Source: an uncultured Lachnospiraceae bacterium (GTDB lineage: Bacteria > Bacillota > Clostridia > Lachnospirales > Lachnospiraceae). Taken from it: a DNA stretch of 64,000 bases. A program made the position numbers and the translations under genes. The notes below the pieces were generated by a model. It searched no databases, had not been told where the DNA came from, and saw nothing but the letters and a program-made list of their open reading frames with translations. Numbering within the stretch: the first letter of the stretch is position 1; every line of letters begins with the position of its first letter. Where the stretch lies: the NCBI GenBank assembly GCA_949484645.1, contig CASYOT010000002.1, forward strand, positions 2,912 through 66,911. Reading direction: 5' to 3'. Positions 55,873-64,000 of the stretch are shown piece by piece.

Positions 55873-55974
55873 TGTGTTCGGGAAAGGGAAGTTTTTAAGT
55901 CGTTTTTATTGTATTTGACAGATGTTTTGGCATATGCTATTCTTGTCATAGAAAAACTGCATAAGAATCTTCAG

Positions 55975-56140
55975 GGCAGGGTGACTTTGCAAAGCAGGGG
56001 ATTCCCTACCGGTGGTAAAGCCCACGAGCCGCAAGGCATGATTCGGTGACTCTTATCAAACGGCAAAAGTCGGATAAGCGGGATTCCGAAGCCGACAGTA
56101 TAGTCTGGATGAAAGAAGGTAAATGTCGTATCGTTTTTAG
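55975..56140 (+). ncRNA. FMN riboswitch (RFN element) aptamer
   Basis: Conserved RFN blocks: cagggcagggtga...ggattccctaccggtggtaaagcccacgagcc...gattcggtga...cggcaaaagtcggata...gggattccgaagccgacagtatagtctggatgaaagaagg; lies upstream of ribD. Confidence 0.85.
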
Positions 56141-56207
56141 GCGCTTCCTGTATGCCATTTGGCTTTAAAAGACGGCATATATAAGACGAGGGACATGGTT
56201 TGCATTG

Positions 56208-56245
56208 TGGGAGAACCGGCTCTGAAATAGATTGTTTCAGCGCCG
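56208..56245 (+). terminator. riboswitch expression-platform terminator
   Basis: Hairpin ccggctctgaaa-tagattg-tttcagcgccgg followed by T6, between the aptamer and ribD. Confidence 0.65.
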
Positions 56246-56354
56246 GTTTTTTGATGGCAGAGTTTTTGCGCAAGCCAGAGTTTTTGCGCAAGCCAGAGTT
56301 TTTTTGACAGGGCAGTGTTTTTTGGGGATTGAAAAAGGGAAGGGAAGTGACAAG

Positions 56355-57455
56355 ATGGAAGATAGGGACTATATGCGGATTGCAATAAAAGAAGCAAAAA
56401 AGGGAGAAGGCTTTACGAATCCAAATCCGATGGTTGGGGCCGCGCTTGTGAAAGACGGGCGGGTAATTGGCAAGGATTTCCACCATAGATACGGTGGATT
56501 CCATGCTGAGCGGAATGTAATTTTAAATTGCAGGGAGCCTGTGGAGGGAGCAAAACTTTATGTGACATTAGAGCCATGCTGTCATTATGGAAAAACGCCG
56601 CCCTGTACGGATATTATCATTGAAAGTGGCATTCGGGAGGTATATATTGGCTCAATGGACCCAAATCCGCTTGTCGCGGGAAAAGGCGTAAAGCAGTTAA
56701 AAAAGCATGGCATAAAAGTTGTGACGGGCGTTTGCGAAGCGGAGTGCCTAGAACTTAACCGCGTGTTTTTTCATTATATAAAACATAAAACGCCCTATGT
56801 TATCATGAAATATGCGATGACGGCTGATGGGAAAATTGCGACGCGGACGGGAAAGTCAAAGTGGATTACTTCAGAAGCTGCCAGAGGACGCGTTCAGGAA
56901 AGCCGCCATAAATATATGGGGATTATGGCAGGGGTTGGCACTGTGCTTTTGGACAATCCGAGATTAACGTGCAGATTGGAAGGGAAAAGAAGTCCGGCGC
57001 GGATTATTTGCGATACGCATCTGCGGACGCCGCTTACGGCAGAAGTGGTACAGACGGCGCGTGAGATTCCGACAATTCTTGCAACGGCAGAAACAGACAG
57101 TAAAAAGATGGAGCCTTATCATGCAAAGGGGGTTCAGATGCTTGCCGTTCCCTTAGAAGGGGAAAGACTGGATTTAAAAATCTTAATGCAAAAATTGGGC
57201 GAACAGGGGATCGACAGTATATTGTTGGAAGGCGGGGCAATACTGAATTATAGCGCATTAAAAAGCGGGATTGTCCATGCGGTTGAGATGTACATTGCGC
57301 CGAAACTGTTTGGCGGGACACAAGCGAAAACGCCCGTGGAAGGGCTTGGCGTAGAACTGCCGGATCAGGCGTTTCAACTGTGTGATCCAAAGATTTCCCA
57401 GATCGGGGAGGATATTTTAATTGAATGGAAGGTGGGTGTATGTTTACAGGAATAA
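56355..57455 (+). CDS. ribD: bifunctional riboflavin biosynthesis deaminase/reductase RibD
   Basis: MEDRDYMRIAIKEAKKGEGFTNPNPMVGAALVKDG...HAERNVILNC...TLEPCCHYGKTPPC deaminase zinc motifs, then reductase domain; start set to ATG 56355 (the track start 56232 would run through the terminator). Confidence 0.9.
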   Translation: MEDRDYMRIAIKEAKKGEGFTNPNPMVGAALVKDGRVIGKDFHHRYGGFHAERNVILNCREPVEGAKLYVTLEPCCHYGKTPPCTDIIIESGIREVYIGSMDPNPLVAGKGVKQLKKHGIKVVTGVCEAECLELNRVFFHYIKHKTPYVIMKYAMTADGKIATRTGKSKWITSEAARGRVQESRHKYMGIMAGVGTVLLDNPRLTCRLEGKRSPARIICDTHLRTPLTAEVVQTAREIPTILATAETDSKKMEPYHAKGVQMLAVPLEGERLDLKILMQKLGEQGIDSILLEGGAILNYSALKSGIVHAVEMYIAPKLFGGTQAKTPVEGLGVELPDQAFQLCDPKISQIGEDILIEWKVGVCLQE

Positions 57456-58078
57456 TAGAAGAAATCGGCACAGTGCGGAGGATTGGATCGGGCAGAATCC
57501 ATATTCGGGCAAAAACGGTTTTAGAAGGCGTGAAAATTGGGGACAGTATTGCCGTTAATGGGGTTTGCCTGACGGTGACGGAATTGGGCGCGGATTTTTT
57601 TGCCGCAGACGTTATGCCGGAGACTTTTCAGAGAAGCTCTTTGGGAAAGCTTAAGACGGGAAGCGGCGTGAATTTAGAGCGGGCGATGGCGGCGGACGGA
57701 CGGTTTGGCGGGCATATTGTTTCCGGACATATTGATGGGACGGGGAAAATCCAGTCTATTACAAAAGACGGGAATGCGGTCCGTTACCGGATTGACACAT
57801 CGAAAGAGCTTTTGCGTGGGATTGTGGAAAAAGGGTCGGTGGCTGTAGACGGCATTAGCTTAACAGTTGCCGCAGTGGCATCGGATTGGTTTGAACTTTC
57901 GGTGATTCCCCATACGCTTCATGAGACGGTTTTGGAGAAGAAACGGATAGGGGAAATTGTGAATCTGGAAAATGATATGATCGGAAAATATGTAGAGCGG
58001 CTGTTGTCTTTGAATCAGGAAGAAGAAAAAAAGCCGTCTGCGTTGACAAAAGAATTTTTGCTTCGGGCAGGATTTTAG
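57440..58078 (+). CDS. ribE: riboflavin synthase alpha subunit
   Basis: [12 protein letters not shown]...two lumazine-binding repeats ([13 protein letters not shown] / [12 protein letters not shown]). Confidence 0.9.
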
Positions 58079-58089
58079 GAGGGAAAAAC

Positions 58090-59295
58090 ATGCAGGCATT
58101 TAGTTCGGTGAAAGAAGCGTTAGAAGATTTAAGGCAGGGAAAAATTATTCTTGTCACAGATGATGAGGATAGGGAAAATGAAGGGGATTTTATTTGCGCG
58201 GCGGAATTTGCGACGACGGAAAATGTTAATTTTATGGCGATGCATGGCAAAGGGCTGATTTGTATGCCGATGGGGAAGGCGCTTGTGGAAAAATTAATGC
58301 TTCCGCAAATGGTTTCGAATAACACGGATAACCATGAAACGGCGTTTACGGTTTCGATTGATGCGGTGGAAACGACGACAGGGATTTCAGCGAAAGAGCG
58401 TGGGATTACCGCCAGAAAGTGCGTCGATGAAAACGCCGTTCCTGAGGATTTCAGAAGGCCGGGGCACATGTTTCCGCTTTTAGCGAAAAAGAACGGCGTG
58501 CTGGAGCGTAACGGGCATACGGAAGCGACAGTCGATTTGATGCGGCTTGCGGGATTAAAGGAATGCGGCTTGTGCTGTGAAATTATGCGGGAAGACGGAA
58601 CGATGATGCGGACAGAGGAATTGATGGGTCTTGCGAAAGAATTTCAAATTAAGATGATTACGATTCAGGCAATTCAGGAATACAGGAAAGTGCATGAAAA
58701 GCTGGTAGAGGAAGTTGCAATTACGAAAATGCCGACGCGTTATGGGGAGTTTTTGGCGCATGGGTATGTCAACCGCTTAAATGGAGAGCATCATGTGGCA
58801 TTGGTAAAAGGAGAGATTGGAGACGGAGAGCATTTGCTTTGCCGCGTCCATTCGGAGTGCTTGACGGGCGATGCGTTTGGCTCGATGAAGTGTGACTGTG
58901 GGCAGCAGCTTCAATCGGCGATGAAGCAAATTGAAAAAGAAGGCCGTGGGATTTTGCTTTATCTGCGGCAGGAGGGCCGCGGGATTGGGCTTATCAATAA
59001 ACTTCGGGCGTATGAATTGCAGGATCGGGGAATGGATACGGTGGAAGCGAATTTGGCGCTGGGCTTTGAGGAGGATTTGCGGGAGTATTATATTGGGGCG
59101 CAGATTCTCAGGGATTTGGGCGTAAAAAGTTTGCGGCTTTTGACAAATAATCCGAAGAAGATTGACGGCCTTTCGGAGTTTGGGCTTAGCATTGAACAAA
59201 GAGTGCCGATTCAGATGGAGCTGACGCCGTTTGATGCGTATTATATGAGGACGAAGAAGAAGAAGATGGGGCATATGTTGGAGGGGGAGTTTTAG
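58090..59295 (+). CDS. ribBA: bifunctional 3,4-dihydroxy-2-butanone-4-phosphate synthase / GTP cyclohydrolase II
   Basis: [16 protein letters not shown] synthase motif; C-terminal GTP cyclohydrolase II with [21 protein letters not shown] zinc motif. Confidence 0.9.
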
Positions 59296-59678
59296 CGGAC
59301 GCTGCCCAGCAGATACAATTTTCCGCTGGGAGCGCTTTTGCTTGTTGACGCTCGCAGCGGCGCTAAGACGCCAAAATACGGCGTCTAAGAGCCGGCGGCG
59401 TCAAGAATCCCTGCGGCTAATTGTATCTGCTGTTCATCTGGCATTGGGGGACGGTAGGTTTGGTGGGCATTAATGGGTATTGGGTTAGGGAGGAATTTCA
59501 TGTTGGAAAGCGGGGGCTTGTGTTTGAAGCGCAGTGTAGTGGGGGTTGAATAATGGAGAATTGGACTATGGCAGGTTTAGTTTTGGGAAACTGGCTGGTT
59601 TTATCTGCTGTTTAACGGGGGATTGACGGACGGTAGGTTTAGGCGGCTGTAAAATAATAGTTAAGGAGATGGAATGAG

Positions 59679-60146
59679 ATGAATGTATTTGAGGGAAAGA
59701 TTGTTGCGAAGGATATTAGAATTGGGATTGTGGTGGCTAGGTTTAATGAGTTTATTACGGATAAGCTTCTGGGGGGAGCGGTTGACGGGCTTAAGAGGCA
59801 TGAAGTGTCTGAGGATTTGATTGATGTGGCTTGGGTTCCGGGAGCGTTTGAGATTCCGTTGGCGGCGAAGGCTATGGCGGAAAGTGGAAAGTATGATGCG
59901 GTGATTTGTCTTGGCGCGGTGATTCGGGGGGCGACTTCACATTATGATTATGTTTGTAGTGAGGTTTCGAAGGGAGTCGCTCAGGTGGCGCTTCAGTCGG
60001 GGCTTCCGGTGATGTTTGGCGTGTTGACGACGGATACGATTGAGCAGGCGATTGAGCGCGCAGGAAGCAAGGCTGGCAATAAGGGATTTGACTGTGCGAC
60101 GGGCGCGATTGAGATGATTAATTTGCTGCGGGGGATTCGCGGTTAG
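59679..60146 (+). CDS. ribH: 6,7-dimethyl-8-ribityllumazine synthase
   Basis: [33 protein letters not shown]...VPGAFEIP lumazine synthase signature; 155 aa. Confidence 0.9.
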
Positions 60147-60321
60147 TGGGTGTTTGGAAATGAAATCAGGCATTCTTTTGCTTTTGGGCAGGAGGATGCC
60201 TGATTTATTTTTGGGTTTATTGTAAACTTATTTTTGTGATTGGTTGACAATCTGGAAGGGGTATTATAGAATTGGAAATGGATATTATGGAGGGGAGGGG
60301 TATGGGACGATGGGTTTATCG

Positions 60322-62229
60322 TTTTATAGTGTGAAAATGAGGGCAAGTGAACAGGGAAAGCATATTTCAGGGGCGGAGCGTCTTGTTTTGGAGCGGGAAG
60401 TGGACGTTTGCGTGGAGCAGATGCTTGGGCGTGGGCGGAATCATTCGAAGGGGAAGGCGGATTTGCTGAATATTAAAATGGAAAAGATTGAGGAGAATGA
60501 GATTTTATATTTGGATACACTTCCGGTTTCTACGGTTGAAGTGAAGGATTTCAGAGACGGGCTTAAGGAAGTCAGAAATTGTTTGTTGGAATTGGGGATT
60601 GTGAACGTAGAGGGGATCTTGGGGCGTTTGCCGGAAACGTATGCGATGCGTGGGGCTATGTTGTTAGATGTGGATACGCTGAAACGGTTAGAGCCGGACA
60701 GGGAGCGTGGGGTTAGGGCTACTTATATGGACGGAGTAAGGACGGGGGAAGCTGTTTTTACGAAGGGGAAACATCATTTTCAAGAGGCGGTTGTGCTGGC
60801 GGCGAAGGTGGCGAATGCGCCGAATATTATTGGGGAAATTTGTATTTCGGACGATCCGGATTATGTGGCGGGGTATGTCGCATCGAAGGTGTTTGGGTAT
60901 CGGCGGATTACGAAAGTGAAGGAAGCTGGAAGTGAATTGGGCGGGAGGATTTTTTTGTATCGGGGGCGGGAGGAGGATGTGGCGGAGACGGTTGGCTTTT
61001 TGGAGCATCAGGCTGTGCTTGTGAGGAATGCGCCGGAACTTTTTTCGAGGAACCATAGCGAGGGGAAGTTTGGGTTTCTTAATGAGGAGCTTAAACGTCT
61101 GCGGGAGGATTTTTTATTTCGGAGTATGAAGACTATGCAGTCTGCGCAGTCCTCGTCGGTTTTATGTGATGGAAGGCGTGTGCTTTTGCTTGCTTCAAAT
61201 CATTATTTGGATTTGGCCCGCCGTAAGGATGTGAAGGAGTCTGCGGAGCGGGCGCTTGACTTGTATGGAACGGGTTCGGGAGGTTCGCGGCTTACGACGG
61301 GCAATACGGTTCTGCATGAAAAATTGGAAAGCAGGATTGCAGAGTTTAAAGGGGAGGAGTCTGCGCTGCTGTTTAATTCGGGTTATGTTGCGAATCTTGC
61401 CGCAATTTCTGCGCTTATGGGAAAAGGGGACGTGATTTTCAGTGATGAATTAAATCATGCGAGCATTATTGACGGCTGCCGTCTAAGCGGGGCGGAGATT
61501 GTAATATACCGGCATAATGATATGAGGGATTTGGAGCAAAAGCTGGCCAAGTGTCCGTTTCGGAGGGGGCTTGTGGTGAGTGATGCGGTGTTTAGCATGG
61601 ACGGGGATATTTTAAATCTGCCGGAGTTTGCGCAGCTTGCGGATCGGCATCAGGCGTTGTCGATGGTAGATGAGGCGCATTCGACGGGAGTGATTGGAAG
61701 GACGGGGCGTGGGATTGTGGAGCATTATCATGGCGTATGCAGGCCGGATATTTTGATGGGGACGCTTAGTAAGGCGATTGGCAGTGAAGGCGGGTTTGTT
61801 TGTGGGAGCAGGGCGCTGACGGAATTTTTAAGGCACAAGGCTCGGGGGTTTGTCTTTTCCACTTCACTTTCTCCGGCTGTGGCGGCGGCTTCAATTCAGG
61901 CGCTTGAGGCATTGGAGGAGAATCCGCAGTTGGTTTTAAGGCTTAGGGAAAATGTGTTGTTTTTTTGTGGCTGTTTACGCGAGGGAGGGATTTTGGCTGA
62001 TTCAAAAAGCGCGGTGATACCGATTATGATTGGAGACGAGAAAAAGGCGATTGAGATTTCGGAGGAGCTTTTTTCGGAAGGGTATTTTATCCCTGCAATT
62101 CGTTACCCTACAGTGAAAAGAGGGAGCGCAAGATTGCGGGCGGCGCTTATGTCGGAACATTCGAAAAAAGATCTTAGGGAAGCGGCAGAAGCAATTTTGA
62201 GAGTGTGCGGAAAATATGGGATTGTATGA
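60322..62229 (+). CDS. bioWF: fused 6-carboxyhexanoate-CoA ligase (BioW) / 8-amino-7-oxononanoate synthase (BioF)
   Basis: N-terminal about 250 aa FYSVKMRASEQGKHISGAERL...SDDPDYVAGYVASKVFGYRRITKVKE matches BioW; C-terminal about 390 aa LLLASNHYLDL...GSGGSRLTTGN...FNSGYVANLAAIS...TLSKA matches BioF; single uninterrupted ORF. Confidence 0.75.
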   Translation, partial: FYSVKMRASEQGKHISGAERLVLEREVDVCVEQMLGRGRNHSKGKADLLNIKMEKIEENEILYLDTLPVSTVEVKDFRDGLKEVRNCLLELGIVNVEGILGRLPETYAMRGAMLLDVDTLKRLEPDRERGVRATYMDGVRTGEAVFTKGKHHFQEAVVLAAKVANAPNIIGEICISDDPDYVAGYVASKVFGYRRITKVKEAGSELGGRIFLYRGREEDVAETVGFLEHQAVLVRNAPELFSRNHSEGKFGFLNEELKRLREDFLFRSMKTMQSAQSSSVLCDGRRVLLLASNHYLDLARRKDVKESAERALDLYGTGSGGSRLTTGNTVLHEKLESRIAEFKGEESALLFNSGYVANLAAISALMGKGDVIFSDELNHASIIDGCRLSGAEIVIYRHNDMRDLEQKLAKCPFRRGLVVSDAVFSMDGDILNLPEFAQLADRHQALSMVDEAHSTGVIGRTGRGIVEHYHGVCRPDILMGTLSKAIGSEGGFVCGSRALTEFLRHKARGFVFSTSLSPAVAAASIQALEALEENPQLVLRLRENVLFFCGCLREGGILADSKSAVIPIMIGDEKKAIEISEELFSEGYFIPAIRYPTVKRGSARLRAALMSEHSKKDLREAAEAILRVCGKYGIV

Positions 62230-62248
62230 TTAGAAAGGGTGTGAAACT

Positions 62249-62929
62249 ATGGGGAAAGGGCTTTTTATTACGGGCACTGGCACAGATGTTGGAAAGACAT
62301 ATGTTTCCGCTTTGATTGTAAAAAAACTGCGGGACGCTGGTTTTCGCAGTGGCTATTTTAAAGCGGCGGCCAGCGGCAGCCAAAGAACCCAAAGTGGTCT
62401 GGCGCCGGAAGATGCGGAATATGTAAAGGCTGTTGCGGGGATTGGCGGGAAGCTGTCTGAAATGGTTCCATATGCGTATGAACATGCGTATTCTCCGCAT
62501 TTGGCGGCTCAGATTGAGGGGAATCCGGTGGAAATGGACGTTGTCTGTGGGAAATATGAAGCTATGTTGGAACGGTATGAGTATGTGACTGTGGAAGGCA
62601 GTGGAGGAATTGTCTGTCCGATTCGTTTTGACACGCAGGTGATTTTACTGGAAGATGTGATAAAGAAACTGAACCTTGGCGTTTTGGCTGTTGCAGATTC
62701 AGGGCTTGGGGCGATTAATCGGAGTGTCTTGACGGTGAGTTATTTAAGGAGCAGGGAAATAGAGGTGAAGGGGATTGTATTGAATCGTTTTCGGGACAGC
62801 ATTGTGGAAATGGATAATAGGAAGATGATCGAGTATCTGACAGGCGTTCCGGTAGTGGCTGCCTTGCGTGAAGGTGAAATGTGTCTGGATATTGGGATAG
62901 AGAGGCTGGCGGGATTTTATGACGAATGA
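62249..62929 (+). CDS. bioD: dethiobiotin synthetase
   Basis: MGKGLFITGTGTDVGKTYVSA P-loop signature of BioD; 226 aa. Confidence 0.85.
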   Translation: MGKGLFITGTGTDVGKTYVSALIVKKLRDAGFRSGYFKAAASGSQRTQSGLAPEDAEYVKAVAGIGGKLSEMVPYAYEHAYSPHLAAQIEGNPVEMDVVCGKYEAMLERYEYVTVEGSGGIVCPIRFDTQVILLEDVIKKLNLGVLAVADSGLGAINRSVLTVSYLRSREIEVKGIVLNRFRDSIVEMDNRKMIEYLTGVPVVAALREGEMCLDIGIERLAGFYDE

Positions 62930-63395
62930 ACGGGGGGATTCGGTTAAAAAACTTGTAACGGACGGTATGCTGGCGGCGGTTCTGCTGGTTACGGGAATGT
63001 TTAAAATCCCATCGTTTCTACCGGGCGCGGAATTTCAGATTTCGGCTCCGTTTGCGGTGGCGGTTGCAAAGATTTTGGGATTTAAAAGGTATCTTATGAT
63101 TGGCCTTGCGGCAAGTGTCTGTGGGTTTGCGGTTGGCGCGCAAAATTTGTTAAATATCATGGTTGCCATGGTTTACAGAGTTGTAGTTGGACTTTTGCTG
63201 GATCTGTTTCCAGACAGCAAAGCCGCGGTGGCGCTTTGCGGGCCTTGCGGCACGTTTGTTTCCAGACTTTTGCTGGCGCAGGTTTTGGGCGTTGACTGGG
63301 TTCTGTTGGTTTTGTATGCGCTTCCGGGCATGGCGTTTACGGCGGTTTTGGCTCCGGTGTTTATAAAAGCGGGAAGGAGGTTTGGTTTGCAATGA
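62919..63395 (+). CDS. bioY: biotin transporter substrate-binding component BioY (ECF-type)
   Basis: 158-aa hydrophobic protein with 4-5 predicted TM helices and BioY-like GMLAAVLLVTGMFKIP N-terminal pattern; located inside the bio operon. Confidence 0.6.
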   Translation: MTNERGDSVKKLVTDGMLAAVLLVTGMFKIPSFLPGAEFQISAPFAVAVAKILGFKRYLMIGLAASVCGFAVGAQNLLNIMVAMVYRVVVGLLLDLFPDSKAAVALCGPCGTFVSRLLLAQVLGVDWVLLVLYALPGMAFTAVLAPVFIKAGRRFGLQ

Positions 63396-64000
63396 AGATG
63401 CAAGAGGATTTTGCAAAGAGGGATTTAAGGCATATTTGGCATCCATGTTCGCAGATGAAGGATTATGAAGAACTTCCCCCAATGATTATTGATCATGGGA
63501 AGGGCGTTTATTTATACGATGTGAACGGAAAGGAGTATATGGATATTGTAAGCTCTTGGTGGTGTAATCTGCTGGGGCATTGTAATCCTAAGATAAATGA
63601 AAGCATAAAACGGCAGTTGGACAAGTTAGAGCATGTGATTTTCGCAAATTTTTCACATGAACCGGCGATCCGGCTTTGTGAGGAATTAAAAGAGGAGCTT
63701 CCGGAAGGATTAGAAAAATTCCATTTTTCGGACAATGGTTCTGGGGCGGTGGAGTGCGCGCTTAAGATGGCGTTTCAATACCAGTATCAGACGGGGAATC
63801 CGCAGAAGAAAAAGTTTATGTGCTTTACGGATGCGTATCATGGAGAGACGATTGGGGCGCTGTCTGTCGGATGCATGGATTTGTATGCAAAAATTTATCA
63901 GCCGATGCTTATGGATACGATTCGGGTACAGGCGCCGGACTGTTACCGCTGCCCTTTTGGGTTAAACAGGGATTGTTGTAATGCGGAGTGTTTTGTATAT
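63392..64000 (+). CDS. bioA: adenosylmethionine-8-amino-7-oxononanoate aminotransferase, N-terminal part (runs off window)
   Basis: MKMQEDFAKRDLRHIWHPCSQMKDYEELPPMIIDHGKGVYLYDVNGKEYMDIVSSWWCNLLGH matches the BioA N-terminus; open to the end of the window. Confidence 0.8.
   Translation, partial: MKMQEDFAKRDLRHIWHPCSQMKDYEELPPMIIDHGKGVYLYDVNGKEYMDIVSSWWCNLLGHCNPKINESIKRQLDKLEHVIFANFSHEPAIRLCEELKEELPEGLEKFHFSDNGSGAVECALKMAFQYQYQTGNPQKKKFMCFTDAYHGETIGALSVGCMDLYAKIYQPMLMDTIRVQAPDCYRCPFGLNRDCCNAECFVY

Follow-up and report, generated by a model that had tools for sequence, protein, structure and literature searches.

In the 64,000-nucleotide (nt) stretch of an uncultured Lachnospiraceae bacterium that we analyzed (contig CASYOT010000002.1; this whole stretch is hereafter called the window), the open reading frame (ORF) at 60310–62229 very probably encodes BioWF, a naturally fused bifunctional enzyme of the biotin pathway. 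BioW (pimeloyl-coenzyme A [CoA] synthetase) and BioF (8-amino-7-oxononanoate synthase) lie in one polypeptide, and this is a natural fusion and no assembly artifact. Such fusions are widespread and have been described and experimentally characterized before, and the window gene is a routine member of the class. The features of the gene are as follows, with amino acid (aa) positions counted in the predicted protein:

60289–60300, forward strand: ribosome-binding site (RBS), GGAGGGGAGGGG
60310–62229, forward strand: bioWF coding sequence, predicted bifunctional pimeloyl-CoA synthetase/8-amino-7-oxononanoate synthase, 639 aa plus stop
60325–61023, forward strand: BioW domain, aa 6–238, from Pfam and NCBIfam
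61027–61071, forward strand: interdomain linker, aa 240–254, NAPELFSRNHSEGKF, from alignment and the predicted model
61078–62214, forward strand: BioF domain, aa 257–635, from NCBIfam and alignment to E. coli BioF

A single frame is open from 60244 to the TGA at 62227–62229, with zero internal stops in both the ORF list and the raw sequence. The gene starts at the ATG at 60310, 9 nt past the RBS, giving a product of 639 aa plus the stop, and public gene calls for an identical protein (P0001) place the start at the equivalent ATG and likewise give 639 aa. The TTG at 60244, which is the start in the ORF list, was rejected as the bioWF start, being part of the promoter −35 hexamer and 5′ of the RBS. 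Across the junction (nt 61027–61071), stops occur in both other frames, and continuity is thus frame-specific. An initial interpretation made from the letters and their ORFs (the sequence-only reading) had described one continuous BioW-BioF ORF with no stop or frameshift, and this is confirmed by the open frame, the domain models, and an independent assembly. The junction it had put at about 61100 is near the linker found here. Its gene, running from 60322 with 636 aa, was essentially right in length (636 codons including the stop) but wrong in its start, as 60322 is a TTT codon, marking the onset of BioW homology (FYSVKMRAS) rather than of translation. The fusion is also far from confined to this contig. 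A cluster of 43 sequences, located on 260 contigs, has this identical 639-aa protein as its representative, and 609 index blocks of the public assembly collection contain it. Window positions 57000–64000 also recur in an independent European Nucleotide Archive (ENA) assembly (L002, on a contig of 231 kb), at 99.93% over 7,001 nt, with 5 mismatches and 0 gaps.

Both halves of the protein were identified by curated family models. In Pfam, PF03744 (BioW) covers aa 6–238 with an E value of 1.6e-75 and 254 bits, spanning profile positions 1–239 of 239, and Aminotran_1_2 (PF00155, the class I/II aminotransferase fold) covers aa 291–629. In NCBIfam, the BioW half passes both of its equivalog cut-offs (243.3 vs. 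226 for NF002360 and 203.1 vs. 193.55 for TIGR01204), and the BioF half passes the bioF equivalog TIGR00858 (434.4 vs. 426.45). The models of the sister alpha-oxoamine synthases all scored under their cut-offs (396.8 vs. 460 for Kbl, 351.5 vs. 640 for SPT, and 294.9 vs. 338.55 for ALAS). The two enzyme identities proposed in the sequence-only reading, BioW and BioF acting in consecutive steps, are thereby borne out.

The active sites of both halves are intact by alignment. Against the solved B. subtilis BioW (BsBioW; 5FLG/5FLL), Y185, Y197, and R199 correspond to Tyr199, Tyr211, and Arg213, the three residues in contact with the distal pimelate carboxylate. Against the BioF of E. coli K-12 (EcBioF, taken from NC_000913), H383, S429, D454, H457, T485, and K488 correspond to H133, S179, D204, H207, T233, and K236, the last being the lysine that binds pyridoxal phosphate (PLP). 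All nine of these residues are invariant across 15 diverse fused homologs. Each half also aligns end to end, with a conserved active site, to the stand-alone enzymes (BioW of B. subtilis, 5FLL, and A. aeolicus, 5TV5; BioF of E. coli, 1BS0), which differ from BioWF in being two separate polypeptides.

By contrast with the catalytic residues, the linker at aa 240–254 differs in both sequence and length across the 15 fusions, although it is in frame in every one. In the alignment of these sequences, it is flanked by the final BioW strand (VLVRN) before it and the first BioF helix after it. An AlphaFold2 model of the full-length monomer has two confident domains, and the predicted local distance difference test score (pLDDT) falls below 50 only at aa 244–250 and in three short loops. 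In our search of the PDB, no chain spanned both domains and no solved fused BioWF was found; the best PDB sequence match was the Thermus AONS/KBL, which is dual-annotated.

The sequence-only reading had suggested that the fusion might be undescribed unless it proved widespread and already characterized, and the database search for BioW-BioF fusions that it called for, now run, together with the literature, refutes this. Every one of the best 120 clusters at 90% identity contained PF03744 and PF00155, most of these proteins being ~630–660 aa long at 53–68% identity. To estimate prevalence, we searched exhaustively with HMMER, using the BioW domain only, and obtained 476 clusters at 50% identity (E <= 1e-3). 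Among the best 150 of these 476 representatives, 22 also carried BioF, and the order was W-to-F in all 22. Fusions thus made up 22 of the 139 BioW representatives of at least 225 aa within the same best 150, or ~16%, leaving ~84% unfused. A contig scan from the fusion alignment found 5 of 80 loci fused, the remainder being mostly stand-alone BioF, but it was seeded on BioF-domain motifs and is unsuitable as a taxonomic census. Named sources of fusions included Eubacterium, Lachnospiraceae, Pseudoflavonifractor, Clostridium novyi, C. botulinum, and C. luticellarii, as well as Desulfosporosinus, Bacillus sp., Priestia flexa, Desulfovibrio, and Malonomonas rubra; Corynebacterium amycolatum is a further source from the literature (PMC9544090).

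Two of these fusions have been studied experimentally. Manandhar and Cronan (2018, as reported in PMC9544090) used an E. coli bioF mutant supplied with pimelate, which was complemented by the BioWF of Desulfosporosinus orientis. This protein (P0103; Appl Environ Microbiol 2018) aligns to aa 1–636 of the window protein at 55% identity and 710 bits, with the same W-to-F order, a similar length (649 vs. 639 aa), and all catalytic residues in common. It differs in coming from a Peptococcaceae rather than a gut Eubacterium/Lachnospiraceae-like metagenome-assembled genome, in a linker that is 5 residues longer, and in having been tested in vivo, whereas the window protein is known from sequence. The C. 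amycolatum protein (CaBioWF) has been purified and characterized, and it converts pimelate to 8-amino-7-oxononanoate (KAPA) (Richardson et al., ChemBioChem 2022, PMC9544090). It accepts many acids and three amino acids, and its broad acid scope has been traced to Phe192, as F192Y restores pimelate specificity (PMC9544090). The same study describes the kinetics of the CaBioW domain as comparable to those of stand-alone BsBioW, reports that inclusion of the N-terminal beta-strand is important for BioW activity, and presents a computational model with a ~5 nm tunnel between the two active sites (PMC9544090). Like the window protein, CaBioWF is a natural BioW-BioF didomain with a disordered linker. 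By its published description rather than by alignment, it differs in having Phe192 at a pimelate-contact position, where Y185 and Y197 of the window protein are both Tyr. A more distant parallel is the Arabidopsis BIO3-BIO1 (BioD-BioA) protein, which is also a natural fusion of consecutive biotin-pathway enzymes, although it performs other steps, is eukaryotic, and has no homology to the BioW or BioF halves. BioWF fusions have previously been exploited as biocatalysts, and the Cronan laboratory cited them as an argument for the use of pimeloyl-CoA by BioW-type BioF. The window adds a further member to this set, contributed by an abundant Eubacterium-like organism of the gut.

We infer the two enzyme activities of the window BioWF from its characterized homologs. 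The BioW domain would convert free pimelate and ATP to pimeloyl-AMP, and then, with CoA, to pimeloyl-CoA. The PLP-dependent BioF domain, presumably dimeric like all alpha-oxoamine synthases, would next combine pimeloyl-CoA with L-alanine in a decarboxylative Claisen condensation to yield KAPA, which BioD and BioA of the same operon could carry onward to dethiobiotin. Because Y185 and Y197 are both Tyr, with no Phe at either specificity position, the window enzyme is predicted to be pimelate-specific.

Nothing that we found contradicts the identification as BioWF, and two other explanations of the gene carry little weight. A sequencing or assembly artifact, in which separate bioW and bioF genes were merged by a stop-hiding indel, has almost no chance of being right. 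Unfused bioW and bioF genes do occur in relatives, overlapping by 4 nt at one locus (L090) and separate at another (L096), so one indel could in principle mimic a fusion. Yet the recurrence of the same 639-aa protein (260 contigs, 609 index blocks), the gap-free 7 kb of the independent ENA assembly, the two domains in all of the best 120 clusters with proteins of ~630–660 aa, and a linker that stays in frame across 15 taxa already refute the artifact for practical purposes. It is also very unlikely that the C-terminal domain is another alpha-oxoamine synthase (Kbl- or SPT-like), or that the protein is a broad aminoketone synthase like CaBioWF serving another pathway. BioF, Kbl, SPT, and ALAS are closely related and several of their models score high, the top PDB match carries a dual AONS/KBL annotation, and CaBioWF itself takes many acids and three amino acids. 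Nevertheless, bioF was the sole equivalog above its cut-off, and the domain is fused to BioW in an operon with bioD and bioA and a bioO-like site upstream. Moreover, the breadth of CaBioWF is due to Phe at one position and is lost in F192Y, and in the window protein the equivalents of BsBioW Y199 and Y211 are Tyr in both cases. Caveats on the bifunctional biotin-pathway assignment are the narrow margin by which TIGR00858 was passed and the gene content of the operon, which is without bioB and is followed after bioA by unrelated genes in L002, so that complete biotin synthesis is not demonstrated by the operon.

Whether the fused enzyme passes pimeloyl-CoA directly between its active sites is a separate question, and channeling is plausible but unproven. 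Its sole published support is an in-silico tunnel (PMC9544090), and our AlphaFold2 monomer had a predicted template-modeling (TM) score (pTM) of 0.57, such that the interdomain orientation is not fixed by the model. It is quite possible, if a little short of probable, that there is no true channeling: pimeloyl-CoA would equilibrate with the bulk, and the fusion would be kept for 1:1 co-expression or would have a neutral origin from overlapping genes. Consistent with this, the linker is a short, variable stretch with predicted disorder, ~84% of BioW representatives lack the fusion, relatives carry overlapping unfused bioW-bioF genes, the CaBioW domain behaves kinetically much as stand-alone BsBioW does (PMC9544090), and kinetic evidence of channeling is not reported (PMC9544090). 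By contrast, the invariable W-to-F order (22 of 22 fusions among the 150 representatives), the presence of the architecture in taxa as distant as Clostridia, Bacilli, Desulfovibrio, Malonomonas, and Corynebacterium, and the modeled ~5 nm tunnel (PMC9544090) argue against this reading.

Several side observations concern BioW-containing genes. Separate bioW and bioF genes adjoin BioX, the small membrane protein considered below, both in L090 (1697–3024, with the 4-nt overlap) and in L096 (6034–8026, with a 100-nt gap), and these layouts are plausible pre-fusion states. The public name of P0001 is only "8-amino-7-oxononanoate synthase," omitting the BioW half, and this annotation shortfall could make pathway reconstructions score such genomes as lacking bioW. 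A 965-aa protein on one ENA contig (P0044) appears to be a BioW-BioF-BioB triple fusion (PF03744, PF00155, Radical_SAM, and BATS), though it may be a read-through or frameshift artifact. Two other proteins have an apparent C-terminal BioW: one of 680 aa (P0160) joins it to a Mur-ligase, and one of 1,046 aa (P0271) joins it to a flavin monooxygenase-like and an alpha/beta-hydrolase domain, an architecture that might point to a module for making pimelate joined to its own ligase.

The operon begins with bioWF and runs in the order bioWF-bioD-orf158-bioA, with the following genes after bioWF:

62249–62929, forward strand: bioD, dethiobiotin synthase, 226 aa (TIGR00347, 147.6 vs. a cut-off of 83.3)
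62919–63395, forward strand: orf158, small membrane protein, 158 aa
63392–64000, forward strand: bioA, 5′ part, first 202 codons (451 aa in the full contig L002)

The reading frame of orf158 shares 11 nt with the end of bioD and 4 nt (ATGA) with the beginning of bioA, and such overlaps of stop and start codons point to translational coupling of bioD, orf158, and bioA. At two loci with 65–66% identity (L088 and L093), bioB stands between bioWF and bioD, giving bioWF-bioB-bioD-X-bioA, where X denotes a member of the orf158 family.

Ahead of bioWF, we identified a promoter and a candidate operator:

60244–60272, forward strand: sigma-70-like promoter, TTGACA-17-TAGAAT, 11 of 12 matches, the best in the region
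60220–60250, no strand assigned: BirA-operator-like palindrome, TTGTAAAC-N15-GTTGACAA, candidate bioO, 1 mismatch

The palindrome is unique in the window, and a site with at most 1 mismatch occurred in none of 100 shuffles. The −35 hexamer lies inside its right half. We judged the site by comparison with E. coli bioO (NC_000913) and by its recurrence across taxa, the consensus being that of E. coli and not of a Firmicute. The E. coli operator reads TTGTAAAC-N18-GTTTACAA, and its half-sites match those of the window, with a spacer of 18 vs. 15 nt. Equivalent palindromes lie 30–150 bp 5′ of bioWF in four taxa: Clostridium sp. (L003, 201–232), Malonomonas rubra (L021, 4227–4258), L086 (3900–3930), and L088 (2374–2405). 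In L090, a perfect TTGTAAAC-N16-GTTTACAA occupies 1111–1142, between a bifunctional birA containing a helix-turn-helix and the X-bioW-bioF cluster. Counting all of these, five taxa besides this one carry the palindrome 5′ of bioWF or bioX, with the pattern TTGTMAAC-N15/16-GTTKACAA. BirA thus probably represses the bioWF operon through a predicted operator that overlaps the −35 box, a role we infer only from these sites. The L090 intergenic region between birA and bioX-bioW also holds a second palindrome, TTGTCAAC-N9-GTTGACAA, at 1056–1080, 5′ of the perfect bioO-like site.

The only part of the locus with discovery potential is orf158, as it could address the question of where pimelate comes from and how it is taken up. 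The 158-aa protein had no Pfam match even at E values up to 10, and only a faint resemblance to RibU (E 0.026). A single-sequence search returned 23 unnamed clusters, whereas a profile search put the family at 721 clusters or more, of which the best 120 were all without a Pfam domain and were unnamed, "hypothetical," or "uncharacterized." We considered the energy-coupling factor (ECF) S-component models QueT (PF06177), ECF_trnsprt (PF12822), and BioY (PF02632) with the gathering score as the threshold, and relatives of orf158 stayed short of it, reaching 27 bits vs. 33.7 for QueT and E values of 0.01–0.02 for ECF_trnsprt. Structure prediction was more informative. The AlphaFold2 model has six helices (pLDDT 87, pTM 0.81), and its top 22 matches in the PDB are all S-components (RibU, BioY, PanT, FolT, and ThiT), with TM scores of 0.43–0.73 and 21 of the 22 at 0.53 or above. 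The orf158 protein is accordingly predicted to have an ECF S-component fold.

Members of the orf158 family were linked to bioW or bioWF in all 12 contexts inspected (ten members and two annotated plasmids), in seven arrangements. The layouts outside the plasmids were:

bioWF-bioD-X-bioA: the window and L002
bioWF-bioB-bioD-X-bioA: L088 and L093
bioWF-X alone: L086 and L091
X-bioWF: L083; X-bioWF-bioD-bioA: L094 (Priestia flexa)
X-bioW-bioF adjoining birA: L090
X-DUF3781-bioW-bioF-bioB-bioD: L096
X divergent from bioD-bioA-bioWF: L098

The seven gene orders include the bare two-gene modules bioWF-X and bioW-X. On plasmid pWHA07 of Mammaliicoccus sciuri, the order is bioD-bioA-bioB-bioF-bioW-X, which is the staphylococcal bioDABFWX layout. 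On the plasmids, the Prokaryotic Genome Annotation Pipeline (PGAP) names X a "QueT transporter family protein," a label that goes back to a Pfam QueT match below threshold (27 bits vs. 33.7). On a conjugative plasmid of Staphylococcus xylosus (NZ_CP066722.1, 6294–7471; L100), bioW-X adjoins an IS257 transposase with no other bio genes listed, which suggests that the bioW-bioX pair is a mobile functional unit.

These plasmids connect orf158 to BioX, a small membrane protein whose gene adjoins bioW in the bioXWF cluster of L. sphaericus and the bioDABFWX cluster of S. aureus. The orf158 sequence matches the plasmid X proteins by tblastn at 32% identity and 93% coverage (E 4e-17 to 6e-14), and its family matches the pWHA07 X protein by hhalign at 99.8% (E 6e-30), with a common motif of K(I/L)PSxxPGxEFQxSAP. 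The homology is to the X-position protein of pWHA07, and the BioX proteins of S. aureus and L. sphaericus are matched by gene position only. On these alignments, orf158 is a member of the BioX family of small membrane proteins.

BioX has been described as a small membrane protein that "awaits functional assignment" (PMC11661456) and has been guessed to be an acyl carrier protein (PMC12642757). According to a 2024 review, it is not known for any strain where BioW obtains its pimelic acid (PMC11089781), and a Roseburia genomics paper describes the precursor-salvage transporter as unknown (PMC7478625); our own literature searches on pimelate transport, uptake, and import found no pimelate transporter. 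Because of the predicted S-component fold, the consistent linkage to bioW or bioWF (12 of 12 contexts), and the BirA-operator-like sites upstream, we tentatively propose that orf158/BioX could represent an ECF-type S-component with a new class of substrate, importing free pimelate (or a biotin precursor closely related to it) and handing it to BioW or BioWF. We regard this proposal as possible but somewhat doubtful. Alternatively, BioX may transport biotin, dethiobiotin, or KAPA, or may have a role other than transport. If the proposal of pimelate uptake is true, BioX would explain the source of pimelate for BioW-dependent gut and skin Firmicutes.

The 5′ neighbor of the biotin genes is a riboflavin operon (ribD, ribE, ribBA, and ribH), with the ribH stop at 60146. 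Two regulatory features belong to it:

55963–56124, forward strand: flavin mononucleotide (FMN) riboswitch, RF00050, 82 bits in Rfam, ahead of ribD and ordinary
60163–60206, forward strand: terminator-like hairpin, a 20-pair stem followed by a T-run, ATTTTTGGGT, ending the riboflavin operon

Since this hairpin ends the riboflavin operon, the bio genes form a separate transcription unit. In an Rfam scan of 54.5–64 kb, the FMN riboswitch was the only match, with no RNA regulator found ahead of bioWF. Between ribBA and ribH there is a 383-nt gap (59296–59678) without a gathering-threshold Rfam match or a listed ORF of at least 60 aa. Finally, the riboflavin and biotin operons (56000–64000) stand out in composition, with a GC fraction of 0.47–0.50 vs. 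0.35–0.45 elsewhere in the window, and the skew of G over C is strongest in these two operons, reaching 0.45 at bioWF.

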